Positions 24,850 to 44,505 of a DNA stretch of 64,000 nucleotides are shown here, one piece after another. A program made the translations under genes and the position numbers. Position 1 is the first letter of the stretch, and each line of letters starts with the position of its first letter. This DNA comes from Sporolactobacillus sp. (GTDB lineage Bacteria; Bacillota; Bacilli; Bacillales; Sporolactobacillaceae): contig JBHGUY010000009.1 of NCBI GenBank assembly GCA_048976585.1, positions 148 through 64,147 of the forward strand, written 5' to 3'. The notes under the pieces are model-generated. The model was given only the letters and a program-made list of their open reading frames with translations, was not told the DNA's origin and made no database searches.

Positions 24850-25167
24850 TCAGTGAAATAAACCCATCTTGTTCGTTTCACGCGTCACATTCACTTTGTC
24901 TCTTTTACCCGGTGTCAGAAAAAGCGTCTTTCTGAATTTTTCATCCGTGTGCGGTTCCTTGAATGTCAAGCGCTGGACCTGAACCGGAATCTTATGATAA
25001 GTGCTGACATTCGTATTGATTTCATTCGGATCAATCGTCGTTTTCTGTTTTTGAAAATGATTGGGCTGGACCTTCGTCGCACTATCTCCATCGAATCCGG
25101 CGACTACCGTGTATGAAAACAGCATGACCCCAGTCAGGATGCAGGACTTAAAGATTTTCCGTCTCAT
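24850..25167 (-). CDS. essA: T7SSb component EssA/YueC, short form lacking the C-terminal TM helix
   Basis: Position after esaA; signal-like N-terminus; KVQPN and LTF..P...FRKTLF...KMGLF resemble YueC; only 105 aa. Confidence 0.65.
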   Translation of the reverse strand: MRRKIFKSCILTGVMLFSYTVVAGFDGDSATKVQPNHFQKQKTTIDPNEINTNVSTYHKIPVQVQRLTFKEPHTDEKFRKTLFLTPGKRDKVNVTRETNKMGLFH

Positions 25168-28102
25168 CTTCCTTTCCCTCCCTGAAATAGTGAATGCCTT
25201 CCCGGATGCCAATGACCAAGAGAACTGGAATCAGCATCAAGACAAGGCCAAACATGCCCCTAATAAATGGAAGATAATCGGTTCCATTGGCGATTGCCAG
25301 ATAAACATCGGCTGCCGGATTCTGGTAGGCAAAACGATCGAGACTGTTTCTCAGCAGCGGCAGCGTGAAGAATACAACCATCGCCACGAGTACGAGAACG
25401 CCGGCCAGTTCGGATAATCGATAAGCTTCATGAATCCAGGCAGCAAGGACAACCACCAAACCGATAGTAAAGACACTCCACATTAAGACGTCGTTACCTT
25501 CCAGATTGTATTGCTGCACGCCATAGTAAATAATCGCTGCTGAACTGATAAACGCCAGTAACCCGGAAATCAACCCATTAATGGTCCAATTCAAGCGGCG
25601 ATAATAGAAGCTGAAATACCCAGTCAGGATGCCGGCAATTAGCACAACCAGTAAGGTCAGGAAAGGCTGCTGAACCGGTACTGGCTCGGTTGCGGCCGTA
25701 GCTGCGTTCTGCGTATTATTGGATGCTGCTTTTACCGGATTCCCATTCTGCAGTCCCGCCAAACCAACCGGGCTGGTCAACTGCTGATAGACATTTTGAT
25801 TACGATTGCCCGGTACGCCCGTATTACCCAATGTTTGAGCGATGGTATTACCCAGTTGCGCGGTGGCATTCACATTCTGCCCCCATGATCCGCTGAGCTG
25901 GTTGGCATCCCCCTGCACACCATTGACCATTGAGTGAACATCCTGCGAATCTTTTAGAATAGCTGATTCATTATCGGAAACATTCTGCAACCCGGCATCA
26001 AGATCACTGAGTTCGGCAAAATCACTGTCGTTCACTGTCACAGTAATCCCATTATCCGTATCCGTGTCATCAACCGTGATATCCGGCTCCGTTAAATCAA
26101 TCGGCTTAACGATCGAAGCCGTCTGCTGCTGGATCGAGGACATATTACTTGCCAGATCATTCTCGATTTTTTGCAAATCAGATTGTTGATTACTCATTTT
26201 GTCTGAATATGTTTGTATATCCTCATTATACTTTTGTTGAATATCATCTGTAGCAGCTTTAATTTTTGGGTTTATATCCTTTGGATCATGATCATTAAGA
26301 TAGTTTGATATTCCATCTATATTCGTTGACAAACTTGGAAATAATTCATTCGCTTTAGTTACCATACCATCTAAATTAGTACTTGCGTTTGTAAAATTGC
26401 TATCATCAACAGTCCTATTTGAATCATATTTACTAGAGCCTGACTCAGTTTCATATAGGTTAATCGAATCACTGTCGTTTGACAATATAGTTTTTACACT
26501 TAATAAAGCATTATAAAATGTATCTATTGAATCTTGAGTATATTTATTTGTATCAGGATTCTGTAGAAATTTTGTTGTATCAAAACCATCTGTTTGAAAT
26601 ATTGAAAAGTTTGAAATCTGAGAGATCTCATTCTGTAGCTGAAAAATATCTTGTAAAGTATAATGAGTGGTTCCTGTAGAAGTGTCGTTTTTATTTTCGC
26701 TATCTGTATTGTTAACAGCTTGATTTTGATCAGGCGATTCCCCTGTTCCTGTTCCTGTTCCTGTTCCTGTTCCTGAATTATCTTGCTCTAAAACTGGCTT
26801 CGCAATGCTTAATAAACTGTTTAATAAAGAAATATTATCATTGAGATGCGTTCCAATTGCTCGGAAAAATTTTTGAGCATCACTGAATACCGCATCATCA
26901 TTTGCTTGCTGCTTATCAATATTGCCCTGTATTGTTAGAACTTGGTTGTTTAAAGAAGTATCCGATTCTGAATCTGGTTTTAAATAATCTTGCAAATTCT
27001 TTGATATTAAATCGAAATTGGTTTTACTAGTATTAAATTGAACATTGTTGTCAGCGCCGTAATAATTAGCCAATCCATTTAATTCATCACTTGCTGATAG
27101 TTTATCGACTGCCACATTCGTATTCATCGGTTTCTGCATTGCATTTTGATATGCAGTGACCAAGCTGTTCATATTCTGTCCGGCTGCGGTGGAGGCGTCT
27201 TGTGCTTTTTGAGTAGCGTCATCGACCATCTGTTTATTGGTGTCGTCTGTTTTTTGCAGCGTTTGAATTTGCTGCTTCAGCTGATCGTTCAGTTGCTTTA
27301 ACTGATCATTCAGCTTATTCATAGACTCTGTCTGCTGATCAATCTGTTTTTTGGTCTCAGTCAATGATTGCTGCTTGCTGTCTGCACTTTTTGCAGCCTG
27401 ATTCGTCTCATCGAGCAGTTCATTAATTTGCGAGAGCTGCGAATTGAAGACCTGCGCCATATTCTGAGACGACGGCTTGTAGAAATTGGCCATGGCCTGC
27501 AGATACTGCTTGTCCTTCTTCAGCACATCGGCAAAATTTTGATTCACATAATTAATTTTATCGGAAACCACTCGCCAATAGATTTTCGAGAATTGCTGAT
27601 TAAGCGTGCCTTTTACCTTCTGGAACTCCGACTGCACCTTCGCCGAATCGACGGCGGTCAATTTCGGATTGGCTTGATAGGTGATCACTGCCGATTTCGG
27701 TTTGGACTGATTGAAACTGAAGATATTCGCGGTGAAATTCGACGGGATATAAAATGCGGCCTGATAATCCCCACTTTTCAGCCCGCTTTCAGCAACACTG
27801 CGGCTGACTGATTCCCAATCGTAATCATCCCCGGTAGAGAAAAGCGGCGCGACCTGATTGCCGAGATCCAATTTCTGACCGTCGACATTGGCCCCCTGAT
27901 CCTCATTAACCAGTGCCAAATGACCGGTTTTCGGAGTCTGGGGTGTGACCGTTTTGGCCGTGTTGCTTTTTGCCGTCTGCGGCTGCTCGGCTGGCGGTGT
28001 CAGGTAACGAGGCAGGGCACCGGATATGCAGACAATTATTATAAAGACGATAATCAATGTCCCCCACTTTTTTAGGCGACTGCTTGCCGGCTCATGCATC
28101 AT
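25148..28102 (-). CDS. esaA: T7SSb component EsaA/YueB
   Basis: N-terminal TM, LALVNEDQGA, long coiled-coil ectodomain and C-terminal multi-TM block. Confidence 0.9.
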   Translation of the reverse strand: MMHEPASSRLKKWGTLIIVFIIIVCISGALPRYLTPPAEQPQTAKSNTAKTVTPQTPKTGHLALVNEDQGANVDGQKLDLGNQVAPLFSTGDDYDWESVSRSVAESGLKSGDYQAAFYIPSNFTANIFSFNQSKPKSAVITYQANPKLTAVDSAKVQSEFQKVKGTLNQQFSKIYWRVVSDKINYVNQNFADVLKKDKQYLQAMANFYKPSSQNMAQVFNSQLSQINELLDETNQAAKSADSKQQSLTETKKQIDQQTESMNKLNDQLKQLNDQLKQQIQTLQKTDDTNKQMVDDATQKAQDASTAAGQNMNSLVTAYQNAMQKPMNTNVAVDKLSASDELNGLANYYGADNNVQFNTSKTNFDLISKNLQDYLKPDSESDTSLNNQVLTIQGNIDKQQANDDAVFSDAQKFFRAIGTHLNDNISLLNSLLSIAKPVLEQDNSGTGTGTGTGTGESPDQNQAVNNTDSENKNDTSTGTTHYTLQDIFQLQNEISQISNFSIFQTDGFDTTKFLQNPDTNKYTQDSIDTFYNALLSVKTILSNDSDSINLYETESGSSKYDSNRTVDDSNFTNASTNLDGMVTKANELFPSLSTNIDGISNYLNDHDPKDINPKIKAATDDIQQKYNEDIQTYSDKMSNQQSDLQKIENDLASNMSSIQQQTASIVKPIDLTEPDITVDDTDTDNGITVTVNDSDFAELSDLDAGLQNVSDNESAILKDSQDVHSMVNGVQGDANQLSGSWGQNVNATAQLGNTIAQTLGNTGVPGNRNQNVYQQLTSPVGLAGLQNGNPVKAASNNTQNAATAATEPVPVQQPFLTLLVVLIAGILTGYFSFYYRRLNWTINGLISGLLAFISSAAIIYYGVQQYNLEGNDVLMWSVFTIGLVVVLAAWIHEAYRLSELAGVLVLVAMVVFFTLPLLRNSLDRFAYQNPAADVYLAIANGTDYLPFIRGMFGLVLMLIPVLLVIGIREGIHYFREGKEDETENL
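26742..26775 (+). repeat. (CCTGTT)x5.7 tandem hexamer encoding a Gly-Thr linker in EsaA
   Basis: Read directly; protein SGTGTGTGTGTGE. Confidence 0.9.
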
Positions 28103-28144
28103 GAAAGACTCCCTTTCTATTGTTCAAAGCTCATATGATTAAGA

Positions 28145-31100
28145 TTAGCCGGTTTTGATTAATACTCGTTTTGCACGCGGGATCATCAGTCGGCGGTCTT
28201 GGCCTTGATGCAGCAAATAGCCAAACCCAATCGCCAGTTCACGCTCTTTGCTGACAAAAGGAAGGGTAAAGACCGATTGATCCGTTTTCTTAATCAGCAG
28301 CAAGCCATCCTTCACGGTTTTCAATTCTGTGATTAACGGATCGTAGCCTTTCCATTCCAGCGCATTGCCCGCCGCAATCACATGGAAACCGATCGATGAA
28401 TAGCGCTTCATCAGCTGAATAATCCGGTTTTGCATCGTGCCTGCCTTGCGGATAAAAGCATCCAGACTGTCAATTAAAAGATAGTAGGCAGGATAGGCGG
28501 CGGCAAGCTCCGCGCGCGGCAGATCGTCATCGAGCATTTTCTCCTTAATCTCACGTTCGCGGGCCGAGAAGACGGCCTCGATCTGATCGGCATAGAGCTC
28601 AATGGCCGTTCCGTCATCCAGATAGGTCCAATTGTTCTTTTCTGCATCTTTGGCAAAGACCAGTTCCTCGGAATCGCTGATAGCGAGTGACGCATGATTA
28701 AATCGCTGAAGCTGATCAATGATAAAACGAACCGCATTGGTTTTCCCTTTTTTCGGATCACCGATGATAATGAATGAACCAAGCTGACGGCATTCGATCC
28801 CAATCGGTTCGACCGATTCCTCATCAAGGCCAAGATAGAGCGTATCCGCGAGCAGTGCCTCATTTTCAAGGAATTCAGCCGCATCGAGCTGCTCAGGCAG
28901 CATCGGAATATGATAAAGAGTTGACGAGACCGGATGGTCCGCATTGCAGGCATCCACCGCCTCGAGCCACTTGGTCAATTGCTCGCCGGCTGTTTTCGCC
29001 TCAAATGGCAGGTAGATCTGAATGCTCTCCAGATCTTCCGTTTTGATTAATGCCCGCCCAGGGATTGCCTCGACCGTTTTCTTCACCGAACCGCTGAAAA
29101 TCGAATAGAATTCGGTTTGATCGACCATATAGTGGGACAACCGGATTGGCAGACTGGTCAGCAGATTCGGTCGAATCCCGTTGGCCCGGGACACGGTAAG
29201 AATAAATTGCAGACCGAGGCTTCCGCCTTCACGTGCCCAGCGCACGAAGGCTTCTTCCAGGGCATCAGCCTGTTCCTCGCGCAAAGCCTCAAAATTGTCG
29301 ACGGCGATTTTTAGATAGGGCAGCTTTTCACTTTCCTGCTCATTATAGAGCTCGATATTTGGTACACCGCTGCGACGGAATAGGTCCTTGCGTCGCTGAA
29401 TTTCCAGATTCAACCATTTGGAAAATTTGCTAATCTTCTCCTTTTCATCAATTCGAAAATAGTCACCCGTGTGATGCAGACGGCGCAGGGATAATAAACC
29501 TCCGCTACCGAAATCAAAGAGATAGAACTGAACCTCATCCGCCGAATAGCTTGCGGCAGCTTCCAGCAAATAAGACGAGAGAGTTGTTGTTTTTCCAAAA
29601 CCGGAAGCACCGAAAATAGCGATATTTTTTGATTTTTTCAATGAGAGATACACCGGCGTCTGCATCTGCTTTTCCGGATGATCGGCGAGGCCAAGCAGGA
29701 AGGCATCCTTTTCCCTCTCTTTTGCCACCGGCCGAACCTGATGAATCGGCAGCGGTGCCACCCATGGACTCGGCAGGCGTTCCACTCCGTTTCGCTGGCA
29801 AATGTCGGCGATGGTCTGAACAATTTGCTCCAATTCGCTGATCTTTTTCGCCTGCACCTTTTTTTTCGCGTGAGCCTCGGAAATCGGATAAAGGCCGGTA
29901 TCTTCAACAGCGTAGACATCGTCCTCGGACGTATAAATCGTTTTTTCGTATGGGGCACCGCTCCAGGCGGATTGAAAGAGTTCATAAATTTCGTTATTAC
30001 CGACCTGCAGATAGCCGCGGCCGACCTGCTTCAGGCTGGCTGCATCGCCATTGCCGAGAATATCATTACTGTCGGCACTGTCCTGAACCCGCAGCGCAAT
30101 TTTAAAACGCGAATTACTACGGATCTGATCGTCGACTACCCCCGCCGGCTTCTGTGTCGCCAGAATCAGATGAATGCCGAGGCTGCGTCCAATCCGTGCG
30201 GTTGTGACCAGCTCGCGGATAAAGTCCGGTTCCTCTTTCTTCAGTTCCGCAAATTCGTCCGAAATGATAAATAAATGCGGCATCGGTTCACTGACTTTGC
30301 CCTGACGATGGAGCAGCTGATAGTCATCAATATGGTTAATACCGTATTTTGAAAAAAGCAGCTGGCGTCTGCGCGACTCACTCTTAACAGCAGCCAATGC
30401 CCGATCGCTGAAATTTTTCTCATCATTAATATTAGTCATCGTGCCGAGCAGGTGCGGCAGCTTCTCAAAGAGCTGAGCCATGCCGCCGCCTTTAAAATCA
30501 ATCAACAAAAAGGCTACATCATGCGGATGAAAATTAACGGCGAGTGACAGGATGTAGGATTGGAGCAGCTCGCTTTTCCCGGAACCAGTTGTCCCGGCAA
30601 GCAGCCCATGCGGACCATGCGCTTTTTCATGCAGGTTAAGCTCGAGTACATCATTGCGGCTGCGCAGACCAATCGGCACAGCCAGTGACTGAATCGGATC
30701 ATGCTCACTCCAGCGCCGTTCGATATCCAGTTCATCCGCATCTTCGGCATGCATCATTTCCATAAAAGTGACATTTTCCGGAATCGAATTACTGAAGCTG
30801 CTCCGATGCTTCAGCGAAGCCAGCCGCCGGGCAAACCACTCATTCCCGGCATTCACGAAGGGATCGATCTGAAAACGCTGGCCATTTGCGACCTGCTTCA
30901 GAATCAGAACATCACCCGCATTCGCGTTCACATAACGGACGACTGTCTGTACATTTTCATTCAAATTATCTTTTGTATTCGCCAGAAAAATCGAACTGAC
31001 ACCGATTTCGGTATAATCTTTATTCAGAAATTCAGCAATTTCATGTTCATGGATCAATTGGTCGGAAGCGACAATAAATAACAAATGGGGAAGAAAGAGC

Positions 31101-32620
31101 TTCTTCTCTTTATGTTCCGTATGCTCGCGAATCTTGAGTTGTTCATAGAGACTAGGCAACAGCTGATCACGGGTCTGTTCGTTATAAACCATATTCCGGC
31201 CTTGCGTACTGAGACTATTCAGATGCGGCAGCCATTTGAGCCAGGCCCACTGGTCATACTCTTCCTGATCAAACAGCAGCACAATCCGCAAATCGTGATA
31301 GCTGTGGAAGAAGGCCAGTTGCAAAATAATCTGCTGCACCGCCGTGCGGATGATTGAGTGTTTGCCTGTCAAACCCAGCGGGCCATCGGTTAAGGCGATC
31401 GTCAGCGGCACGTCGCGAACCTGCCGGTAATGATCAACAATCGCTTTTGCTTCTACATAAAGCGCATCGAACGAACGATTGGACACTTCCTCTTCACTAG
31501 CCTCAATCTCATAATCCGCCGGCAGAGTCGTCGTTCCCAACCGGATATCCAGAAAGTCTTCCTCCTCGCGGCTTCTTTCCCAAATTCGCGGACTCAGCCC
31601 TTCTGCAAGCTCCTTCAGCGCGCTGCTGTCCGGAAATTGATAGCGCAGGACGAAGCGTTGCCGCTCGTATAGCGTGTTCAATTCTTCCCGTTTCTCGGCC
31701 AGATAATGGGTATAGTTCGTCTGCCGTTCCTTCAGGCGTTCCTTCAATTGACGCGACTCATGAAAATACTGAAAGGTCGAGGTCACAATCGTCGTCAGAA
31801 ACATGACAATCGACAGCAGCATGTAAATGCCGCTTGGCTGGACAATCAGCACAATGCCCATTACGATCAGCATCAAAAGGGGTGGCAACAGCGTCACCCA
31901 GAGATTGCGATTACCGCCCTTGTCCGGATTGGTTGGCCAGGAAAATTTGACTTTTTCTCTTGGCCGCTCATAGATCAGGCGGGGCATCCGCTGATAATCC
32001 GGATAACGATCAGCTAAGATGGTTCGTGGATTTTTCGCCGGGAAAAGAGCCGTGTGAAAGGCACTCGTTGTTCGAACAATCAACAAATCCTCAGATTGCA
32101 GCGTCCATTCACTGAGCGCCCAGCTCAGAACATCGCCGAGCGCAACCTGCGTTCGACTGCGAATGCGTCCCCCATTTAGATAAACCTGATTTCCCTCCTC
32201 GGCAAGCAGATACCAGTTCCCGCCCTCGCGCGTTAAAAGAAAACCAGGCGGCGTATTCGCTTCAGAAAATGAAAAGTCGGCTGTTTCCCCGCCAATGGTG
32301 ATTTGTTTCTTCTGACCAATATAAAAGCCCTGCGGCCGATCAGGGATAGAAAGGCCTTCGAGGATCAAAGTCAGTCGCGGCTTGTCTGAGCTCGGAAAAG
32401 TCACTGCCTTTCTTTCGGGCAAATCAAACCTTTGATCACCATTTTGACCCACCCATTTTTTCTGAGCCGTTTCCCACTTCAGATGAATTTTCTCTTCCAT
32501 TTGCACAGGTACCGTGAGCGTATCGCTTAAAGTCTGACCAATCTGAAGATCTCTTTTATGAAAAGTTGCAAGATCAATGACTTGCACAAAGTCTTCTGTA
32601 TATAGCCACAGCTTTTCCAT
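28145..32620 (-). CDS. essC: T7SSb FtsK/SpoIIIE ATPase EssC/YukB
   Basis: N-terminal FHA-like region, 2 TM, Walker A motifs GTTGSGKS, GASGFGKT and GDPKKGKT; 1491 aa. Confidence 0.95.
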   Translation of the reverse strand: MEKLWLYTEDFVQVIDLATFHKRDLQIGQTLSDTLTVPVQMEEKIHLKWETAQKKWVGQNGDQRFDLPERKAVTFPSSDKPRLTLILEGLSIPDRPQGFYIGQKKQITIGGETADFSFSEANTPPGFLLTREGGNWYLLAEEGNQVYLNGGRIRSRTQVALGDVLSWALSEWTLQSEDLLIVRTTSAFHTALFPAKNPRTILADRYPDYQRMPRLIYERPREKVKFSWPTNPDKGGNRNLWVTLLPPLLMLIVMGIVLIVQPSGIYMLLSIVMFLTTIVTSTFQYFHESRQLKERLKERQTNYTHYLAEKREELNTLYERQRFVLRYQFPDSSALKELAEGLSPRIWERSREEEDFLDIRLGTTTLPADYEIEASEEEVSNRSFDALYVEAKAIVDHYRQVRDVPLTIALTDGPLGLTGKHSIIRTAVQQIILQLAFFHSYHDLRIVLLFDQEEYDQWAWLKWLPHLNSLSTQGRNMVYNEQTRDQLLPSLYEQLKIREHTEHKEKKLFLPHLLFIVASDQLIHEHEIAEFLNKDYTEIGVSSIFLANTKDNLNENVQTVVRYVNANAGDVLILKQVANGQRFQIDPFVNAGNEWFARRLASLKHRSSFSNSIPENVTFMEMMHAEDADELDIERRWSEHDPIQSLAVPIGLRSRNDVLELNLHEKAHGPHGLLAGTTGSGKSELLQSYILSLAVNFHPHDVAFLLIDFKGGGMAQLFEKLPHLLGTMTNINDEKNFSDRALAAVKSESRRRQLLFSKYGINHIDDYQLLHRQGKVSEPMPHLFIISDEFAELKKEEPDFIRELVTTARIGRSLGIHLILATQKPAGVVDDQIRSNSRFKIALRVQDSADSNDILGNGDAASLKQVGRGYLQVGNNEIYELFQSAWSGAPYEKTIYTSEDDVYAVEDTGLYPISEAHAKKKVQAKKISELEQIVQTIADICQRNGVERLPSPWVAPLPIHQVRPVAKEREKDAFLLGLADHPEKQMQTPVYLSLKKSKNIAIFGASGFGKTTTLSSYLLEAAASYSADEVQFYLFDFGSGGLLSLRRLHHTGDYFRIDEKEKISKFSKWLNLEIQRRKDLFRRSGVPNIELYNEQESEKLPYLKIAVDNFEALREEQADALEEAFVRWAREGGSLGLQFILTVSRANGIRPNLLTSLPIRLSHYMVDQTEFYSIFSGSVKKTVEAIPGRALIKTEDLESIQIYLPFEAKTAGEQLTKWLEAVDACNADHPVSSTLYHIPMLPEQLDAAEFLENEALLADTLYLGLDEESVEPIGIECRQLGSFIIIGDPKKGKTNAVRFIIDQLQRFNHASLAISDSEELVFAKDAEKNNWTYLDDGTAIELYADQIEAVFSAREREIKEKMLDDDLPRAELAAAYPAYYLLIDSLDAFIRKAGTMQNRIIQLMKRYSSIGFHVIAAGNALEWKGYDPLITELKTVKDGLLLIKKTDQSVFTLPFVSKERELAIGFGYLLHQGQDRRLMIPRAKRVLIKTG

Positions 32621-32680
32621 TTTTTTCTCCTCCTGTAGAGGCTGCTATTGAGGCACGAATTCTTCCGTACGTCTTTGAGA

Positions 32681-34024
32681 CTACTTCCCGGAAGACTGAT
32701 CCGACCCGCCCTTTTTCTGAGATTTATCGCTCTTTTTTGGCGAAGTTCCGCCGGATTGTCCATTAGGCGTGGAACTTGAAGAAGCGTCACTCGACTCTAC
32801 AGACTGCCCACTTGTGCCGGTATCCGTTGTCGTACTCTCACCGCTTGTCCCGCTGGCAGGTGCCGTTTTTTGCTGCTTCAGTAAATCTCTATATTGCTTC
32901 AGCTGTCCATCAATGCGCTGCAGCCGTGCTTGTTTCTGAGCACCATTCATTTTGAGATTATTCTGGATCGCCGACTGCTCATTCAGCAGCGCATAAGCGA
33001 TCAGCATCCGATCATTGAGCGAGCGGGCTGTATTCAGTGCCCCCGCCGCATCGCCTCTCCCAGTCTGAATCCAGTATTGATAGTAGAGCGGGTTGCTTTG
33101 CAGCGTCACATCTTTTAAAATATTGGCTTTCTGCGTCTCATTGAGGTTCTGATTTTCAACGAAGGAAACAGCTAGTTCATATTGCACAACTCGGGGCATC
33201 CGATTAAATGAAATTGGACTCAGCGTGGTCACAACATTACTGTATTGATTCCCCAGAAAGTTTTCATGAGCACTCTCAAATAGATCTTCCCGCGGCAGCT
33301 GAATCACATAGGCATAAATGGTCACCGCGATCAGCGGCACCAGCAAAACAAGGCTGCAGATAAAGAGCACTTTACGGATAAAATTCTTTTTCCTAGGTAC
33401 CCGAATGCTTTGTTTCTCAGCAGTCACTTCATTTTGCCGTCTTTTGGCGATCAGCCTGGCAAGGGTCTGAAAATCTTTACAATTGAAGATCTTTTTTATA
33501 AAAGGTGTCGTTTTTGCCACGAAATCAAATTTGGCATATGTATCAAATGTTTCAGAAGGATCAAGCAGCGAAGCAATGACCGCCTTCACATGCTTCAACG
33601 GCTCTCCCTCCGCAGATTCAAGCGGCGGGAGGCTGCCCTTGACCCCATAATGTAGGAATACCGGTGCAAATCCTGGTGAAACAAAAAGATTTTCAGGGAA
33701 ACAAACCGGAACCAGTCGTGATTGCGGATAGTGTTCAAAGAAATGAACCAAGTTACTGGCAAAAATCAATTTTTCTATTTCTGTCTCCGCTTTCAAATCC
33801 TCAAAGGGTTTGAGATCCGGGGCAGGCACGATCTGGATCGTCACCTCATCCTCTGTTGTTTGAATCGTACGTGTCATCCCATCTGCCATGCTGCTCAACG
33901 CACCGAGCTCTGCATCTGCTCGTAAAGGAATCTTTACCCGCTGAAAGGTTAATAGATACTGTCCTTCGTTTTCTTCAACCTCAGCGTCGAAAGCTGTCTG
34001 AAAAAAGCTCTGCGTTAATGCCAT
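32681..34024 (-). CDS. essB: T7SSb component EssB/YukC
   Basis: PENL..HYGVKGSLPP pseudokinase-like region, single TM, YELAVS.V..QNL. Start 34024 (SD GAGGTG). Confidence 0.9.
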   Translation of the reverse strand: MALTQSFFQTAFDAEVEENEGQYLLTFQRVKIPLRADAELGALSSMADGMTRTIQTTEDEVTIQIVPAPDLKPFEDLKAETEIEKLIFASNLVHFFEHYPQSRLVPVCFPENLFVSPGFAPVFLHYGVKGSLPPLESAEGEPLKHVKAVIASLLDPSETFDTYAKFDFVAKTTPFIKKIFNCKDFQTLARLIAKRRQNEVTAEKQSIRVPRKKNFIRKVLFICSLVLLVPLIAVTIYAYVIQLPREDLFESAHENFLGNQYSNVVTTLSPISFNRMPRVVQYELAVSFVENQNLNETQKANILKDVTLQSNPLYYQYWIQTGRGDAAGALNTARSLNDRMLIAYALLNEQSAIQNNLKMNGAQKQARLQRIDGQLKQYRDLLKQQKTAPASGTSGESTTTDTGTSGQSVESSDASSSSTPNGQSGGTSPKKSDKSQKKGGSDQSSGK

Positions 34025-34034
34025 CTTCTTCACC

Positions 34035-34274
34035 TCATAAGACAATCAGCTTGTCTCCGTCTGTAATCTTTTTTTCACTCAGCACGTCAAAGCCGCGGAT
34101 CATTTCCCGCTTATTCGCCACGCGTACCCAATAACCGATACGCGGCTGCCGATCGATTCCGGCAATCGTCCAGACGGTTTGTATTAACTGCTTGACCGGC
34201 TGCCGATCCGAAACGCGCAAATCGAGAGTCTCTCGATTGTAGCGGGATAAATCCAGCGACAAATTAATATACAT
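34035..34274 (-). CDS. esaB: T7SSb ubiquitin-like EsaB/YukD
   Basis: MYINLSLDL, ITDGDKLIVL; position before essB; SD GGAGGAG. Confidence 0.88.
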   Translation of the reverse strand: MYINLSLDLSRYNRETLDLRVSDRQPVKQLIQTVWTIAGIDRQPRIGYWVRVANKREMIRGFDVLSEKKITDGDKLIVL

Positions 34275-34425
34275 TAATGACTCCTCCCCCACTGCCTGAA
34301 TAGTCCCTTATTCAACGAAAAGCTCCGTCCAAATCCATCAATTATTGTGCCGATTAAGGGCACGATATAAAATTATGTCCAAAAATTATCCAATCGCTGG
34401 CAACTGGATAAACATTCCTTTTTTG

Positions 34426-34523
34426 TATTATAGAATGATGTGACGATTTATTGAATACAACGATCCTCCTGATTTTCTTACCAAATCTTCGTAAATTCGG
34501 CCATTATCGACAAAATACGACAA
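34426..34523 (-). promoter_or_regulatory. Putative promoter of the esaB-essA operon
   Basis: TATAAT at 34426-34431, weak -35, tandem TGTCG(A/T) repeats at 34507-34512 and 34517-34522. Confidence 0.5.
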
Positions 34524-34777
34524 ATTACAACTGTGACTTTTCTCCCATACGTACTTTTTAATACATCTTTTTGAAATAAATTCATAGCGGAAAGAGAGAA
34601 CCAGGTTCCCAAAAATGGTGAGAAAGGTTGATTAATAGATTCTGGAAAATAAATAGGGGCTATGGGTTTGATGAGGAATATTCAAGACGGCGGACTTTGT
34701 GTGAAGCTGGAAGAAATAGCAGTGAATTGACAACTGGAAGGGTGGAGGCACTGCTCGCGGAAACGCGAATAACCTCT

Positions 34778-36151: not shown

Positions 36152-36458
36152 CTCTTCGCCTTTTAATGAGCCGATTATATCAAACTAGTGAGGCTTACAA
36201 AAATATTTTATCATATTTTATGAAAACCTTCCCTAATAATACTTTTTGAGGCATCACAAGGTTTCAAGGCTGCCTCATTCTGCCCTGAAATTCTTGTTCA
36301 ATCGATTGTTACGACCCTATGTAACATCTATTAAGATTTTAACCCATCATTCTAAAGATAATAAACCTCTTCAGGAATATTACTGACAGCAAGAGATTAA
36401 TCCCCTGTTGGATCTTTTCACAATAACATTTTCTCTTTAGGAGTACTTTTCCTTGCAG

Positions 36459-37200
36459 CTATTCTAATGGATTAAAAGATTCAAACCGGCATTTACAATA
36501 AAAAGTGATCAGACCTATGGGTAAAATCAAGCCATAAAAAACGCATAAAAAAAATAGTGCAATGACAAACATAATAAGAGCTTGCATCTTGAGACCGACA
36601 GATTGCGCCAGAAACTTGCCTCCAATGGCTCCTATCAGTGCAAAAAAACCTATCCCAATAGCTACTTTGTTATTGCCTCCACTATCTCCTGATTTTCCAA
36701 AGAGCCTTCTCATCTTTTCTAAAAGCTCCCCTATTCAGTCTGTAATTTATGAAAAGAAGTCCCAGGAGCAGAATAAACAGACTCATCACGGTTATAAACA
36801 GCAATATCGCTCCCAGTGACAATGAGGGAAAGGCGAATTTGCTGATCAACATCCCCAAAAATGAAAAATCATATCCGGTGATATAGACAGTTATGAGATA
36901 TATCACAAATAATACCCTTTGCAATTGAATCCTTAATCGTTTAAATAAAAATAGAAGGGCTGAAAACAAAAGGATAATCGAACTCGCCCACTGGCAGTAA
37001 AAAAACCATCCCCATTGATGCATTAATGCTGCGGAAAAACCCAACCAAGCCATGGCATAGCTTATGGCTGCAGAGACCAAAGAACAGATGAAAAAACCAA
37101 AGAACAATGAATAGATTCGATAAGGGCTCAATCCCCCTGTTTGAATCCCTTTCCGCAATCATTCAAAATCTGCTTCGTTTAACCTTCGTAGATTTAACAT
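36459..37200 (-). pseudogene. Decayed multi-pass membrane immunity-like paralog (array member 6)
   Basis: GGAGG-ATG at 37200, TGA at codon 14, frameshift at ~36705; retains DF..L..G...G.L.P, FRK and YCKCRFESF family motifs. Confidence 0.8.
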
Positions 37201-37323
37201 TTTTTCCTCCACAGACCAGTTCCTTCGTTTCAAATTCGACATTACCCTTTCTACGCCACTTGAAATTCATCTTAAATGTCCTAAACCTAAAAAGGCATTT
37301 TCGCTTAAATCTTTTCAGCCCAT

Positions 37324-38088
37324 TCACAAATCGGAAAGATCGAATGATTCTTCTTCTCTTACTGCATTAAACGATTTAAAACGAAATTTGCAGTAAATGA
37401 TATACAAATATTCAATGATTCCGACTCCAAATAAAAAAAGAGAAACAACAAAACCGACAATGACGATTAAAACTGTTGAGGCATCTTGTCCCCAATATTT
37501 TGAAGCAATAATAGAGAGTAGTACTCCTGCAGCTGAGAATGGTAGAATTGCTGAGAAACGACTCATGCCCTCACTGTATTGCTTATGAAAGAACCCTCTT
37601 CCTTCTTTCCTAAATTCTCCTTTTTTCAGCAGAAAATAACTTCTGATTAAGGAAAGAACGAAAATCAACAAGTTGATTATCATATACAAGAGGATTACAA
37701 GATTAAACGGAAGATTCGCGTACGAATATTTCCACGCAAACAAAGTCGCACACGACAAATCGATTGCTAATTCGATAAAAGAAAGAATCAGTAAAACAAG
37801 ACCGCTTTTCTGGAAAGTAACACTGACCTTTTTTAATAGAAAGGGCAGTGAGACAATGGCCAGAGCAAGCAGACTATACCATTGCCCATAAATTAGTGAG
37901 ATCCAGCTCTTGTAAAAGGAACCATGAGCTACGATTGCAGCTTGCTGACCACAATAGATAAATAGAGCACTAATTAAATCCACTACCAGAAGAAATTTGC
38001 CCACTCGACTCGGATTTAACCTGCCAGATATTAATCCTTTTTTGAACATTGCGAAATCAGATTCTTGAAATTTATCAAGTAAAGTCAT
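37324..38088 (-). CDS. Multi-pass membrane putative LXG-toxin immunity protein (member 5, subfamily B)
   Basis: 254 aa; close paralog of 38149..38913. Confidence 0.75.
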   Translation of the reverse strand: MTLLDKFQESDFAMFKKGLISGRLNPSRVGKFLLVVDLISALFIYCGQQAAIVAHGSFYKSWISLIYGQWYSLLALAIVSLPFLLKKVSVTFQKSGLVLLILSFIELAIDLSCATLFAWKYSYANLPFNLVILLYMIINLLIFVLSLIRSYFLLKKGEFRKEGRGFFHKQYSEGMSRFSAILPFSAAGVLLSIIASKYWGQDASTVLIVIVGFVVSLFLFGVGIIEYLYIIYCKFRFKSFNAVREEESFDLSDL

Positions 38089-38148
38089 GAAGATTCCTCG
38101 ATTTTAATTATGTTTTAACAAAACACCGCTTAAATTTTTTCAGCCCAT

Positions 38149-38913
38149 TCACAAATCGGACAGATCGAATGATTGCTCTTCTTTTACCGCATTAAACGAT
38201 TTAAAACGAAATTTGCAGTAAATGACAAACAAAAATTCTATGATCCCGACCCCGAATACAACAAGAGAACCAATAAAGCCAGCAATGACAACTAGAATTG
38301 TTAAGGCATCCTGTCCCCAATATTTTGAAGCAATAATAGAGAGTAGCACACCTCCTGCTGAAAATGGAAGGATCGCCGAAAACCTACTTATTCCCTCACT
38401 GTATTGCTTATGAAAGAACCCTCTTCCCTCTTTCCTAAATTCTCCCTTTTTAAGCAAAAAATAACTTCTAATTAACGAAAGTACAAAAGTCAGTACGATG
38501 ATTAGCATATACAAAAAGAATAAGAAATTAAACGGGAGAGCAGCATTCTCATCTCTCCAGACAAACAAAGTCGCATAGGATAAACTAACCATCAATTCAC
38601 TATAAGACAGGATAAGTAAAACAAGACTGCTTTTCTGGAAAGTAACACTGACCTTTTTTAATAGAAAGAGCAGTGAGACGATGGCCAGGGCGAGCAAACT
38701 ATACCATTGCCCATTAATTAGTGAAATCCAGCTCTGATAAAATGAACCGTGAATCGAAGTTAAAGCCAGTTGCTCACCAAAAATGAACAGAGCACTGCCC
38801 AAATCCACTCCCAGAAGAAATTTTCCCAAACGAACCGGATTTAACCTGCCCGATACTAATCCATTTTTGAACATTGCGAAATCAGATTCTTGAAATTTAT
38901 CAAATAAAGTCAT
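38149..38913 (-). CDS. Multi-pass membrane putative LXG-toxin immunity protein (member 4, subfamily B)
   Basis: MTLFDKFQESDFAMFK..GRLNP, KKGEFRKEGRGFF, YCKFRFKSF. Confidence 0.75.
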   Translation of the reverse strand: MTLFDKFQESDFAMFKNGLVSGRLNPVRLGKFLLGVDLGSALFIFGEQLALTSIHGSFYQSWISLINGQWYSLLALAIVSLLFLLKKVSVTFQKSSLVLLILSYSELMVSLSYATLFVWRDENAALPFNFLFFLYMLIIVLTFVLSLIRSYFLLKKGEFRKEGRGFFHKQYSEGISRFSAILPFSAGGVLLSIIASKYWGQDALTILVVIAGFIGSLVVFGVGIIEFLFVIYCKFRFKSFNAVKEEQSFDLSDL

Positions 38914-39080
38914 GCAGCCACCCCGTAGCGATTAACCCTGGTTTGTGCTTCCATTTTTAACATCTAGAGTCACATTTTTACTTATTTTACTGAATCATGC
39001 AAGATTGACAGATAGCTATATTAATTATAGATGCGAAATTCTTTTGCAAAGTGTGTCTCTCATTTTCTCATTTATCATAC

Positions 39081-39914
39081 TTAACTTTTTTTCTTCTTCG
39101 CTTCTCTCTTCATTTTATCCCGCTCTTTTTCCCAATTAAGATGAGCTTGCTCTGCTTTTTTATCCTTAGCGTCAATAATTATCTGTTGCTCAGGAGTTAG
39201 TCTGAACTCGGGAAAGCGCAACTGACAATAGAGAAAGCTAAAAGAAGAAGGTGCGACAAGGTAATCTAAAAGAAGTGTCATAATTAATAAGGCGACCCAA
39301 ATCGTAATTAAAGTTACCGTATTATTGGCAAATCTCGGAATAATGAAGCCCAGAGCCACAGCTGCACCAATAATACTTGAGCCAAAAAGAGGAATTGCTG
39401 TTCCTTTGCCCTGACCTAAATGATTTGAATCTCGGTAGATCCCTTTTTTTGCACGAACGAGAAAACGAACAATGGCAGAAAGAAGAATAGACAGCGCAAA
39501 TAAAAAATAGATCAGCAGAAATAAATAATAATTCAGTGTCGAAATACAAATTTTTGTATAAATCAGGAAAACTACCGCGAAATCAAAACACATTTTTGGC
39601 AAGCAAATAAAGGCAGTGAGCAGGACTGTCCTCTGCAGATGAAAACTAACTTTTCTTATAAAAAATAAAAAGGCTAATACAAAAAAAATAGTTGAAACGC
39701 TCCCGTCAGGAATAAGTAAGGGTAAAAGCCAGTCATGAAATGATTGTCCAATCGAAAATGAGCCAAAGAATGACGCTATGAGTAAACCCATCGATATTAC
39801 AGGACAAATGTAAATTAACCTGCTCAAATTTATTAGATTAAAGTCACCATGACGAATACTTTCCAGAAAAAAAGCAAAATCTCTATAATTCAGTTCATTC
39901 AATTTTTTCATCAT
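39081..39914 (-). CDS. Multi-pass membrane putative LXG-toxin immunity protein (member 3, subfamily A)
   Basis: 277 aa; long identical blocks shared with 41059..41895. Confidence 0.75.
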   Translation of the reverse strand: MMKKLNELNYRDFAFFLESIRHGDFNLINLSRLIYICPVISMGLLIASFFGSFSIGQSFHDWLLPLLIPDGSVSTIFFVLAFLFFIRKVSFHLQRTVLLTAFICLPKMCFDFAVVFLIYTKICISTLNYYLFLLIYFLFALSILLSAIVRFLVRAKKGIYRDSNHLGQGKGTAIPLFGSSIIGAAVALGFIIPRFANNTVTLITIWVALLIMTLLLDYLVAPSSFSFLYCQLRFPEFRLTPEQQIIIDAKDKKAEQAHLNWEKERDKMKREAKKKKS

Positions 39915-40025
39915 TCATTCTTATGACCTTGTTTTTCCTTCCACTGACGAGCTTTTTTATTTTACAATCATCCTTTTACAGAATGTACCTCACATTTTAC
40001 TGAACCTTCTTCAGTTCTACAATGC

Positions 40026-40840
40026 TTATCTTTTCTTCTTTTTTCTCTCCCTCTCTCTTTCCCAGTTAAGGTGAGCTTGCTCATTTCTTTTATCTTCAGC
40101 ATCAAGAGCTGCCTGCTGATCAGCGGTTAACCTGAACTCAGGAAAGCGCAACTGACAGTACATAAAAATAAAAGGATTTGGAGCAAGAAGCAAATTTGAA
40201 ATATAAGAAAGAAATAATGTCCCACTCCACGCAACAATTAAGATAATTGTACTCCCAGAATGCCTGTCGATTATAAAACCTAAAGCTACTCCCAAAACAA
40301 TCAATCCAGAGCCCAATAAGGAGATATTACTTGTTTTTGCAACATTCCTTTGTTTTCCGTGTAACCGATATAATCCTTAGCGTACATTATGGAAGGTCCG
40401 GCTGAGGGAATATATCAGCACAGCCAAGGATAGTGCACAATAAACTATCAATAATAAATAGTAGGGAACAGATGGAAAATTGATTTTTGTATAAATCAAA
40501 AAAAGACCGCTAAATCGAAACTCATTTTCAACGGTGCTATAGATGCCACCGTAAGTTCTGTTTTTTGGAATCGAAAGCTCATAGAGTTTATGGAAAACAA
40601 AATTGACATAATCAGAAAAATGATTGAAATCGATCCGTCCGCGTAAAGAAAAGGAACAAAAGTCTGATGAAAAGATTGCCCTACAGTAAGAGATCCCAAA
40701 TAAGCCATTCCAAGAGCAAGCAAGGAAATAACAGAATAAATATAAAGGCCCTTCCCCATTCTTGTGGGATTTAAATCACCCATCCGATATCTCTTAAGGT
40801 AATAAGAAAAATCTTCCTGAGAAATATGACTCCTAATCAA
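40026..40840 (-). pseudogene. Decayed multi-pass membrane immunity-like paralog (member 2, subfamily A)
   Basis: Frameshift in a T7 run (40498-40504) and in-frame TAA at 40377-40379; both halves align with members 1 and 3. Confidence 0.85.
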
Positions 40841-41058
40841 TAGGGATCAATCCTTTTTTGAATTTTTCAAAAATGTTTTCTTCTACATGAATACTTTTTC
40901 TGTAGACGGTTATCACCAGTTTGATTTTTTTATTATTGTCTGAAACTTGCAAGATTGGCAGGTAGCCCTCTTATAGTTTTTATATTATTTACAGATGCGG
41001 CAATACTTCTCCAGAATGTGCCTCACATTTCACTGCACCTTTTTCAGCTTTAAAATAC

Positions 41059-41895
41059 TTAACTTTTTTTCTTCTTCGCTTCTCTCTTCATTTTATCCCG
41101 TTTTTTTTCCAAATTAAGATAGGCTTGCTCTGCCTTTTTACCCTTAGCGTCAATAACTGCCTGTTGCTCAGGGGTTAATCGGAACTTGCGAAAGCGCATC
41201 TGACAATACAGGAAGCTGAAAGAAGAAGGCGCGACAAGGTAATCTAAAAGAAGCGTCAAAATCAAAGTGGTAATCCAGATCATTATCAAGGTCACCGTAT
41301 TACTGGAATATCTCGGAATAATGAAGCCCAGAGCCACGGCTGCGCCGATAATACTCGAACCAAAAAGAGGAATTGCTGTTCCTTTGCCCTGACCTAAATG
41401 ATTTGAATCTCGATAGAACCCCTTTTTGGCATGAATAAAAAATCGGACAATGGCAGAAAGAAGAATGGAAAGTGCAAATAAAGAATAGATTACCAAGAAC
41501 AAATAATAATTCAGTGCTGGAATACTTATTTTTGTGCAAATTAAGAAAAATACTGCAAAATCAAAACACATTTTTGGCGGCCAAATAAAGGCAGTTAAAA
41601 GAACTGTTTTCTGCAAACAAAAACTAACTTTTCTCATAAGAAATAAAAGAGCAAACATAAGAAATATAATTGAGATGATCCCGTCAACAGCTAGAAACGG
41701 AAGATACTCTTTATGAAAAGATTGTCCAATCGTTATAGACCCAAAGAATGAAGCTATAAGTGTTCCTAGAGATAGAGCAGGATAAATATAGATCAGTCTG
41801 CCCAATGTGATTGGGTTGGAATTGCCTTGACGAGTACTCTTAAGAAAAAAAGCAAAATCTGTCTGATTCAGTTCATTCAATTTTTTCATAATCAA
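41059..41895 (-). CDS. Multi-pass membrane protein, likely cognate immunity for the LXG toxin (member 1)
   Basis: Starts ~20 nt after the toxin stop; 5-6 TM; charged C-terminal tail. Confidence 0.75.
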   Translation of the reverse strand: MIMKKLNELNQTDFAFFLKSTRQGNSNPITLGRLIYIYPALSLGTLIASFFGSITIGQSFHKEYLPFLAVDGIISIIFLMFALLFLMRKVSFCLQKTVLLTAFIWPPKMCFDFAVFFLICTKISIPALNYYLFLVIYSLFALSILLSAIVRFFIHAKKGFYRDSNHLGQGKGTAIPLFGSSIIGAAVALGFIIPRYSSNTVTLIMIWITTLILTLLLDYLVAPSSFSFLYCQMRFRKFRLTPEQQAVIDAKGKKAEQAYLNLEKKRDKMKREAKKKKS

Positions 41896-41913
41896 TCCCT
41901 ATTACCTCTCCAA

Positions 41914-43410
41914 TTAATGGAACCAAGAAATGATTTTATCGCTAATATGATGCAATCCATCTTTCGCCCAATCAATAGCACTTTTCTTTTTATAAATTGG
42001 ATAATTTAAAATAAATCCCAATGTCAATCCCGCAACAACACCAACAGCCATTCCAGCCGGTCCAAGTGCTACTCCCATTTCACCTCCCGCCAGTGCGGAA
42101 GCAGAAGCAGCCCCTACAGCTTCGCCAACTCCTGATGTTACTGCACCAGTCACGGTGTCTGTAGCAATATCATCCGTAACACGAGCGATATTTTTTGCGC
42201 CCATTTTTTTATTTCTATACTGATTGATATCTGAGGCGTATTCGGCAGCCGTTCCGACACCTGTCAATACTTTTCCAGATTTTGCAATATAACCGACATC
42301 ATTCCAGTTGTCAAATGTTTTAAAGGGTTTCATTAAATCAGTTAAATTTTTTTTGAACCCATTTGTAAAAGCTTGTTTCCGCGCTGTAGCATTCAAAGCA
42401 TAGTTAACTTCATCAGATTCATTCATTAAGGCACTGACGCGTTTTGTATAATTTCCCGAATTTTTCTTTTGGATCCGTATATATTGCCCGTTTGAGAAAT
42501 TGACATTAAATCTGCCTTTCACTTTTGAATGACCGTATCTATCCAAAAAGATTTTCATTGCTTTTTTATTACCTGTAACGCGTATATAATCGCCCTTCTT
42601 CACAATTCGCAGGCCTTTGATGCTGGCAACGATCTCCGGTAACGCCTTTAGGACTTCTTTCGTTTTATCAATTCCAAGACTTATACGCTCCGAACGATCA
42701 CTGTCGCCTTCCTTTTTCGCTTTTTCGATTTGTCTCGTTTTTTCTAATTGCGCCGTCTTTACTTTTAGTCTTTTCCCCAGTTCTGTTTTTGCGAAGCTGC
42801 CGGCCTGATAAAAATTGGTTTGGCCAAAATGAGGACTGTAACTCGTCTTGATCTTGGTCATCGCCTGTTCCAGCGTATTCAGCAGCGGCATGAGCTCGCC
42901 GGCATAATTCACTGAAGCAAAGCTTTCAAAATGCGTCTTCAGCTGAGTGATATCCTTTTCCTGCTGCGTCACATCATGAGTCAATCCGTCGGCGGACGGC
43001 ACGCGAAAAAAAGCAACATCGCTGACGGAACGGACGTCCGCCGCCAGCTGACGGTGAATGGTGTCAAAGTGATCCTTGAGCCGGTCGATGTCCTTGTGCA
43101 GTTCGCCGAGATGTTCGGAACGAATGACCGTATCCGGAGAGGCATCAACGTGGCTCTTAAATTGACTGAGCATTTTTTTGTAGGTCTGGGGCAGACTTTC
43201 ACTAATTTCACTCAAAGCCTTCAGAATGGGCAGGTGAACCTCTGAAAAATAGTTTTTGATACTGACGGCTGTAGCTCCCTGGATGGCGCTCAGAGAGCAA
43301 AGATCCTCGATCTCTCCCTGCACGGTCTGCAGTGCGCTGCGCGAGGAACTAGCCTCTGCGGCGAGTTCCGTCCCAATCTTATTCACTTCAGCTAAACGAA
43401 TTTTTGGCAT
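41914..43410 (-). CDS. LXG-domain polymorphic toxin with C-terminal glycine-zipper hydrophobic region
   Basis: N-terminal AIQGATAVSIKNYFSEVHLPIL LXG pattern; C-terminal GEAVG..GVALGPAGMAVGVVAGLTLG. Confidence 0.85.
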   Translation of the reverse strand: MPKIRLAEVNKIGTELAAEASSSRSALQTVQGEIEDLCSLSAIQGATAVSIKNYFSEVHLPILKALSEISESLPQTYKKMLSQFKSHVDASPDTVIRSEHLGELHKDIDRLKDHFDTIHRQLAADVRSVSDVAFFRVPSADGLTHDVTQQEKDITQLKTHFESFASVNYAGELMPLLNTLEQAMTKIKTSYSPHFGQTNFYQAGSFAKTELGKRLKVKTAQLEKTRQIEKAKKEGDSDRSERISLGIDKTKEVLKALPEIVASIKGLRIVKKGDYIRVTGNKKAMKIFLDRYGHSKVKGRFNVNFSNGQYIRIQKKNSGNYTKRVSALMNESDEVNYALNATARKQAFTNGFKKNLTDLMKPFKTFDNWNDVGYIAKSGKVLTGVGTAAEYASDINQYRNKKMGAKNIARVTDDIATDTVTGAVTSGVGEAVGAASASALAGGEMGVALGPAGMAVGVVAGLTLGFILNYPIYKKKSAIDWAKDGLHHISDKIISWFH

Positions 43411-44152: not shown

Positions 44153-44196
44153 AAAAACAAAAACACCGAAACCCCGCTCGGAGCCCCGGTGTTTCC
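44153..44196 (-). terminator. Terminator/attenuator after esxA
   Basis: AAACACCG...CGGTGTTT stem followed by a T-tract on the minus strand. Confidence 0.7.
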
Positions 44197-44211
44197 GTGT
44201 AAAAGGATCGA

Positions 44212-44505
44212 TTAATTGTTGATCTGGCTGGCAATCTGCCGGTCAGTATCTTCCAGAATCGTTGCCGTTTTCGCCAATTGATGATTGATGTCTTCTAGAA
44301 GCTGCTGCATCTGATTGAATGACGGGCGTAATCTCTCATATTGAGATTTGAAGGCCTGGCTGGATGCACCTTCCCAGACCTGAGCAAGCTGGTTAATCAT
44401 ACCGTCAAGCCGTCCGATTAATTCACCGGTATTCGATGATTCCTGTCCATATTTTGCTGCATAGCTCCTCAATTCTTCCGGTGTCAGCCGAATTTGTCCT
44501 GCCAT
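44212..44505 (-). CDS. esxA: WXG100 protein EsxA/YukE
   Basis: MAGQIRLTPEEL, central WEG, 97 aa; strong SD GGAGG. Confidence 0.95.
   Translation of the reverse strand: MAGQIRLTPEELRSYAAKYGQESSNTGELIGRLDGMINQLAQVWEGASSQAFKSQYERLRPSFNQMQQLLEDINHQLAKTATILEDTDRQIASQINN

Follow-up and report, generated by a model that had tools for sequence, protein, structure and literature searches.

The 64,000-nucleotide stretch of Sporolactobacillus sp. contig JBHGUY010000009.1 analysed here (hereafter the window) carries on its minus strand the open reading frame (ORF) of a 498-residue LXG toxin, set within the locus of a type VIIb secretion system (T7SSb). In the direction of transcription, the genes are those of a WXG100 protein, a YwqH-like Lap, a TIGR04197/DUF5344 Lap, the LXG toxin, six membrane proteins of a six-transmembrane (6-TM) type, three DUF5085 proteins, and the T7SSb core (Table 1). 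An earlier note on this DNA, made from its letters, had called an LXG toxin at exactly these coordinates, and a Pfam scan agrees, with the LXG family PF04740 matching residues 14–189 (E = 7e-22). The literal LxG motif reads IQG (residues 43–45), and the sole solved relative in a search of PDB sequences is the LXG chain 8gmh_B (E = 9e-12). The PF04740 match, the two upstream Lap genes, the linkage to T7SSb core genes, and an exchangeable tail accompanied by putative immunity genes identify the protein, at the level of sequence, as a polymorphic LXG effector of the T7SSb that is predicted to be secreted. No second LXG gene or orphan toxin module was found within the 64-kb window.

Table 1. Features of the LXG toxin locus in the order of transcription (positions in the window; GC3, GC content at third codon positions; RBS, ribosome-binding site; aa, amino acids).
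Feature	Position	Strand	Basis and remarks
WXG100 (EsxA/YukE-like) gene	44212..44505	-	PF06013 E 7e-22, TIGR03930 E 7e-24
Terminator-like hairpin directly after esxA stop	44157..44198	-	19-bp stem and T-run; consensus match only
Lap helper, YwqH-like, 132 aa	43726..44124	-	PF16888 E 3e-11
Lap helper, TIGR04197/DUF5344-like, 96 aa	43424..43714	-	TIGR04197 E 1e-8 (above cutoff); PF17279 E 1e-3 (below cutoff)
LXG toxin ORF, 498 aa	41914..43410	-	ATG start to stop; ORF intact, RBS present
Toxin aa 1-235, LXG domain and linker, conserved 'delivery' half	42706..43410	-	PF04740; GC 0.495, GC3 0.557
Toxin aa 236-498 and stop codon, AT-rich variable C-terminal domain	41914..42705	-	GC 0.397, GC3 0.319
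Glycine zipper GEAVGAASASALAGGEMGVALGPAGMAVGVVAGLTLG, aa 429-465, including private 12-aa insertion	42016..42126	-	GxxxG count, shuffles, family alignment
Variable cassette, toxin tail and six membrane-protein genes	36277..42706	.	GC 0.366 against 0.44-0.47 in the flanks
6-TM membrane protein A1, 278 aa, first gene after toxin	41059..41895	-	six hydrophobic segments, RBS; likely start ATG 41889
A-type membrane-protein gene, disrupted, three ORF pieces	40026..40840	-	ORF list
6-TM membrane protein A2, 277 aa, 76-77% identical to A1	39081..39914	-	hydropathy, alignment
Membrane protein B1, 254 aa, 36% identical to post-toxin protein of locus L010	38149..38913	-	alignment
Membrane protein B2, 254 aa, 79% identical to B1, tandem 825-nt unit	37324..38088	-	alignment
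Third-type membrane-protein gene, frameshift-split (158 aa + 84 aa)	36459..37158	-	ORF pieces
DUF5085 protein D1, 153 aa	35690..36151	-	PF16895 E 4e-7; 54% identical to D1 of L010
DUF5085 protein D2, 151 aa	35238..35693	-	PF16895 E 3.5e-33; in one 90% cluster with a protein of a Sporolactobacillus metagenome-assembled genome
DUF5085-like protein D3, 159 aa	34778..35257	-	PF16895 E 4e-5, below cutoff; 28% identical to D1
T7SSb core gene, YukD-like	34035-34292	-	name from L003 annotation
T7SSb core gene, YukC/EssB	32681-34045	-	Pfam scan
T7SSb core gene, EssC	28145-32620	-	Pfam scan
T7SSb core gene, EsaA-like	25148-28102	-	label by size and position only
T7SSb core gene, EssA	24850-25212	-	Pfam scan

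The boundaries of the variable part were obtained by comparison with a relative (locus L001) whose toxin, P0001, is about 97% identical to the window toxin in the first 235 residues, but only about 29% identical in the tail. Nucleotide identity between these loci is ~96–97% from the upstream genes to position 42707, between codons 235 and 236, where all similarity stops. On contigs of the same population (L003–L007), which belongs to a Sporolactobacillus metagenome-assembled genome going by the names of other members of its protein clusters, 96% identity resumes at position 36276 and continues through the T7SS core genes. Since L001, L003, and L004 lose their homology to the window at 42707 and regain it at 36276, the exchanged unit is 36277–42706, or ~6.4 kb. 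The relative's own membrane-gene array is unassembled, its contigs breaking there; its last membrane gene has 72% DNA identity to the B type of the window, beside flanks at 96%. The toxin tail and the membrane-protein array thus constitute one AT-rich 6.4-kb cassette, which lies between the LXG half and the DUF5085 genes, both conserved, and which has been exchanged by recombination. The earlier note had suggested a swapped-in membrane-active tip: the swap is borne out by the comparison with P0001 and L001, but a tip alone is too narrow a description of a unit that includes the membrane-protein genes.

An assembly artefact at the window junction can be dismissed, since a single 31-kb contig from a sugarcane bagasse metagenome (run X1) spans it at an even depth of ~14, and food metagenomes of an independent study contain near-identical pieces of both the tail and A1. 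As for composition, the switch in GC content that had been placed near 42800 is correct: the maximum-likelihood change point falls at 42790–42793, and its likelihood ratio was reached in none of 2000 permutations. This compositional change point and the recombination breakpoint at 42707 differ in position.

The tail (residues 236–498) is preceded by a strongly basic segment and is itself basic, with Lys and Arg making up 29% of residues 201–235 (net charge +6) and 19% of residues 236–400 (net charge +15), a total of +21 for residues 201–400, in keeping with the Lys-rich region described previously. Six GxxxG motifs start at residues 429, 442, 446, 453, 457, and 461, all inside the segment, ~42010–42150, that had been singled out as rich in this motif. 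Six such motifs in a 40-residue segment occurred in 2 of 5000 shuffles of the whole protein, and in 60 of 5000 when residues 421–470 alone were shuffled. Searches of Pfam, NCBIfam, and PDB sequences with residues 236–498 gave zero matches, hence no enzyme family can be assigned, which agrees with the earlier observation that no nuclease, NADase, or phosphatase motif is evident.

An exhaustive phmmer (HMMER) search of 1.84 billion (1.84e9) cluster representatives identified 18 relatives of the tail at E < 1e-3, and a pattern scan of metagenome contigs gave 28 metagenome loci with the tail domain. In a word-indexed protein database, the tail query matched P0001 alone, a protein from a metagenome run, while profile queries returned five proteins for the tail and three for the 6-TM protein, the latter all from the window or locus L009. 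These low yields suggest rarity, within the limited sensitivity of word-indexed searches. The window toxin is a singleton cluster, and a distant Oceanobacillus LXG gene was the sole find in a scan of GTDB species-representative genomes.

The core of the family is formed by the last ~140 residues, where the pattern W-x(6-8)-K-x-G-K-x-L-G-x-x-G is followed by D-x-x-V-D-x-G and by the zipper, G-x-x-x-G-S-x-x-L-P-P-x-G-T-x-V-G-x-x-x-G, after which come K-S-x-V-D-x-A-K-D-G and a terminal S-W-F. The window toxin retains the family-invariant residues, with GP where the family has PP. Its zipper contains a private 12-residue insertion (window ~42070–42110, residues ~434–447) that is absent from 16 of 16 aligned relatives, and that adds small-xxx-small repeats and lengthens the zipper. 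Weak Pfam matches among 17 family members are to Gly-zipper_Omp (PF13488; seven members), Gly-zipper_YMGG (PF13441; four), PF05433 (two), and DUF456 (eight), the best E-value of the glycine-zipper matches being 4e-4. Furthermore, the 29-residue ExiB-binding peptide of the Staphylococcus aureus LXG toxin EsxX (residues 448–476) aligns gap-free and in register onto the zipper of the family profile with a score of 7.2 bits, where 2000 shuffles of equal composition averaged −3.8 and did not exceed 5.9. One member of the family, at L008:8001-9773 (Cytobacillus sp. IB215316), is without a Pfam LXG match and carries the NCBI name 'YtxH domain-containing protein'; its gene is followed by that of a 153-residue 3-TM protein, and holin and amidase genes are nearby.

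Low-confidence AlphaFold2 models lay out the tail as a small beta/alpha subdomain (residues ~267–340) followed by five helices, with the subdomain predicted better than the rest (pLDDT, the confidence score of AlphaFold, 53–72). This subdomain, the motif KGLRIVKKGDYIRVTGNKK..LDRYG of which is conserved among LXG-linked relatives, could be part of an unrecognised enzymatic domain within residues ~236–400 that is the real toxin, the zipper then serving only as a device for membrane insertion or translocation; zippers that aid translocation of toxin domains are cited in a preprint on the Bacillus subtilis toxin YfjB (bioRxiv 10.1101/2023.08.02.551746). We consider such a hidden enzyme unlikely. 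Residues ~236–400 have no Pfam, NCBIfam, PDB-sequence, or Foldseek match, the family-wide conserved columns (W, G, K, D, and S) are found outside the subdomain, in the helical C-terminal 140 residues, and distant family members replace the subdomain altogether. In its genetic partners, DUF5085 and polytopic membrane proteins, the toxin resembles TelE and EsxX, which form pores or depolarise, and the minimal EsxX toxin, of 196 residues, is without a known enzyme domain (PMC12744356). The Foldseek comparison with the PDB (best E = 0.72, template-modelling score at most 0.28) used the first tail model, and is uninformative rather than negative because of the poor quality of that model.

The same low-confidence models, which predict a tail made up of helices throughout, with a hydrophobic pair late in it, would also be compatible with a helical-bundle pore former of the colicin type, where a buried hydrophobic hairpin takes the place of a zipper oligomer. 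With HMMER, the family profile (positions 20–179) matches the colicin A pore domain 1col_A (chain residues 18–187) at E = 0.013, but the score carries a compositional bias term, and hhalign gives the profile a probability of 16% over 15 columns against the colicin A segment. The Pfam colicin family is not among the top families matched by members, and Foldseek yields no colicin, though from a poor model. With the HMMER match unconfirmed by hhalign, a colicin-like fold was rejected, and we regard this type of pore former as extremely improbable.

The six membrane-protein genes of the cassette are paralogous and arranged in tandem, and two of them are broken. Hydropathy analysis gives six segments each in A1, A2, and B2. 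A1 begins 18 nt past the toxin stop codon and is homologous to the genes that directly follow the toxin gene in L009 and L010; this position makes it the most likely candidate for a cognate external immunity protein. For the extra and broken copies, the preferred interpretation is an accumulation of putative orphan immunity genes. A food-metagenome contig (X2) joins position 37330 to 38153 and omits 822 nt, equal to one B-type unit, which reflects either a difference between strains in the copy number of the array or a repeat that collapsed during assembly. A sigma-70 promoter-like site with an 11/12 match (TTGACA-17-TATATT) is located at 42286–42314 on the minus strand, within the C-terminal coding region of the toxin, upstream of the zipper and also of the first membrane-protein gene. 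Expression of the immunity genes from this site could be independent of the toxin; promoter-like sites are, in total, no more numerous in the region than expected by chance.

The two broken membrane-protein genes, the singleton status of the toxin, and the private insertion in its zipper might be taken to mean that the allele is inactive or non-antagonistic, belonging to a decaying cassette or to a signalling effector like B. subtilis YFJ. This is very improbable because the ORFs are intact and the invariant residues are retained: the toxin ORF is uninterrupted and has an RBS, no damage is seen in A1, A2, B1, B2, or any of the three DUF5085 genes, and the same allele is found in metagenomes of a second study.

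Related loci were annotated with hidden Markov models (HMMs) built from the DUF5085 and membrane proteins of the window and their L009 and L010 homologues, and neighbours were counted in metagenome loci and Logan contigs that reach at least 1 kb past the toxin gene. In nearly all of these loci, the toxin gene is directly followed by a gene for a 5–7-TM protein, either of the same family as in the window or of another family of ~290–325 residues, and in most of them a DUF5085-like pair comes next (L009, L010, L013, L015–L021, L023, L026–L028, L034, L037, and L038). Locus L031 has four tandem membrane genes and resembles the window array. At L017, L023, and L026–L028, the post-toxin gene encodes a different protein of ~290–325 residues with 6–7 TM segments, which is unmatched by the membrane-protein HMM and is followed by the DUF5085 pair. 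The membrane partner therefore appears, as far as can be judged from sequence, to be replaceable by family.

The DUF5085 genes behave differently. All three adjoin the cassette on its outside and are conserved in the relative (96% nucleotide identity). In five close loci (L013, L015, L019, L020, and L034), the DUF5085 pair is 83–100% identical, compared with 47–91% for the toxin tail and 58–77% for the membrane protein; between L013 and L034, the values are 96% for the LXG half, 71% for the tail, 74% for the membrane protein, and 99% and 98% for the two DUF5085 proteins. The five loci repeat the pattern seen between the window and its relative, with DUF5085 proteins that behave like core genes, and tails and membrane proteins that diversify together. 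Because the DUF5085 proteins are conserved while the tails and membrane proteins diverge, the former may recognise a generic zipper, which would place allele specificity in the membrane layer. We tentatively propose, as a generalisation that has slightly less than even support in our judgement, that DUF5085 proteins are allele-independent 'zipper chaperones', that specificity resides only in the membrane immunity layer, and that the tail and the 6-TM protein represent two new, unannotated families of a widespread module.

At the upstream end of the locus, the mechanically called WXG100 ORF starts at GTG 44541, but ATG 44505 is the likely start, being preceded by the RBS GAGGAGG and giving a protein of 97 residues as in the gene call of the relative. 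The hairpin behind esxA may be an attenuator or terminator that sets the abundant transcript of esxA apart from the genes for the Laps and the toxin. The YwqH-like Lap gene is equally placed in L001, L010, and L011, and a canonical FxxxD/YxxxD export motif, sought in both Laps, was not found. In a search of PDB sequences, the DUF5085 protein gave no match. Downstream, the T7SSb core genes together span 24850..34292 on the minus strand, and are separated from the last DUF5085 gene by an ORF-free gap of ~485 nt (34293–34777) ahead of yukD that is present in the relative too. A terminator-like hairpin inside this gap (34386–34411, minus strand) suggests that an operon ends here, with the effector module on one side and the T7SS core genes on the other. 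A weak PADLOC match to PD-Lambda-5_A (E = 0.002) was disregarded.

Based on the zipper, the gene context, and the precedent of TelE and EsxX, we infer that the tail is membrane active, and the probable explanation of the locus is in our view an LXG toxin that depolarises membranes or forms pores, matched by a two-tier immunity. The membrane-active character proposed in the earlier note thereby gains support from the zipper together with the six 6-TM genes and, downstream, the three DUF5085 genes of the TipE/ExiA/ExiB family. From what is known of the LXG family, residues 1–235 of the toxin and the two Lap proteins would form a rod that targets EssC, and, as for TelE and EsxX, the toxin would be exported with its Laps via the T7SSb. 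The C-terminal 263 residues would be the membrane-active toxin, in which a basic region, for the most part helical, is followed by a pair of glycine-zipper helices of moderate hydrophobicity. This pair may insert in the cytoplasmic membrane of the target, oligomerise by GxxxG packing, and either dissipate the membrane potential or form pores. Inside the producer, the DUF5085 proteins could sequester the zipper before export, as their family membership and the work on EsxX and TelE suggest, while the 6-TM proteins, judging from their position, their co-variation with the toxin, and the example of ExiCD, would shield the membrane from toxin that arrives from outside.

Several observations weigh against this explanation. 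The peak 19-residue Kyte–Doolittle hydropathy of the tail is 1.74, which is only just within the transmembrane range, and the window tail itself does not match the Pfam glycine-zipper families PF13488, PF13441, and PF05433 even at E = 10. EsxX and TelE are not among the phmmer matches of the tail at E < 1e-3, and whole-domain homology to these toxins, which rests on the 29-residue motif, is unproven. As for the membrane proteins, A1, A2, B1, B2, and the L009 homologues have no match to Pfam DUF5079 or DUF5080 even at E = 10, and the Cytobacillus locus L008 is an exception to the common gene order, with its 3-TM protein gene after the toxin and no DUF5085 neighbours. The AlphaFold2 models of the tail (263 residues, 17-sequence alignment) and of the last 142 residues both have a pLDDT of ~48, and therefore no fold is established for the tail.

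If the two-tier explanation is true, the locus is a natural experiment, in which the neutralisers have been kept fixed while the tail and the membrane immunity have been swapped together. The contrast between conserved DUF5085 genes and swapped membrane genes allows the layer of immunity that determines allele specificity to be predicted in a testable way. The analysis provides exact recombination boundaries for a toxin–immunity cassette, and defines two protein families outside Pfam and NCBIfam, one of toxin domains and one of putative 6-TM immunity proteins.

To our knowledge, the depolarising activity of TspA, one of the precedents invoked in the earlier note, has never been tied to a glycine zipper. 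TelD, also named there as an established membrane toxin, cannot serve as such since its function is given as unknown in a 2026 review (PMC13492133). Better-documented zipper precedents are TelE, EsxX, and LXG-T2 from Streptococcus suis. LXG-T2 is T7SS dependent, causes membrane damage or depolarisation, and has a GxxxGxxxG zipper of modest hydropathy as its sole recognisable C-terminal feature; its immunity gene is given as the downstream gene Imm2 (PMC12955049). YfjB (YFJ) from B. subtilis likewise combines a GxxxGxxxG zipper of modest hydropathy, again the sole recognisable C-terminal feature, with T7SS dependence and membrane damage or depolarisation, but it requires the EspG-like protein YfjC, and has a different protein, YfjD, as its antitoxin; DUF5085 is mentioned nowhere in the text of the preprint (bioRxiv 10.1101/2023.08.02.551746).

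TelE and EsxX, both glycine-zipper LXG toxins, have TipE and ExiA/ExiB, respectively, as their proven neutralisers, all of them members of the DUF5085 family; in the case of EsxX, the cytoplasmic toxin is neutralised with its zipper buried in a groove of ExiB (PMC10434224, PMC12744356). Both toxins also have a six-TM protein encoded beside them (PMC10434224, PMC12744356), and in the EsxX system the ExiC/ExiD pair protects against toxin from outside, orphan copies being present in non-producer strains (PMC12744356). As in the window, EsxX of S. aureus ST398 is an LXG toxin of an ess locus with two Lap proteins, has an extended C-terminal zipper with a (G/P)-P-x-G-xxx-G-xxx-G core in register with that of the window family, and is followed by soluble DUF5085 and 6-TM proteins, the 6-TM immunity genes accumulating as extra copies (PMC12744356). 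Unlike EsxX, the window locus has three DUF5085 genes instead of two, its membrane genes form a tandem array of six ahead of the DUF5085 genes, and its position is not behind essC but between esxA and the core genes. The 6-TM proteins of the window are not DUF5079 or DUF5080 proteins, hence they fall outside the ExiC/ExiD families, which they resemble in position and topology, and sequence similarity of EsxX to the window tail is not detectable over the whole domain.

The TelE locus of Streptococcus gallolyticus (TipE, Gallo_0563, Gallo_0564) has the same succession of two Laps, an LXG toxin of ~500 residues, a 6-TM protein, and two DUF5085 proteins. The zipper is again ~35–55 residues from the C-terminus, and polymorphic alleles share it as a conserved element. 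The products of the TelE operon have 138 (LapE1), 93 (LapE2), 220, 514 (TelE), 244 (6 TM), and 152 and 151 (DUF5085) residues (bioRxiv 10.64898/2026.03.12.711312), which, the 220-residue binder of the toxin middle region aside, match the 132, 96, 498, 278 (6 TM), 153, and 151 residues in the window. The differences are that the window is without an equivalent of this binder, Gallo_0561, and that it has multiple 6-TM paralogues. The system thus resembles those of TelE and EsxX in gene syntax and DUF5085 partners, while a shared sequence family of the toxin domains is unproven. It does not reveal a new mechanism, but is a known kind of toxin with component families that are unannotated, and it would add an environmental and food-associated Sporolactobacillus lineage to the streptococci and staphylococci as bearers of T7SS toxins that target membranes in the manner of TelE and EsxX.

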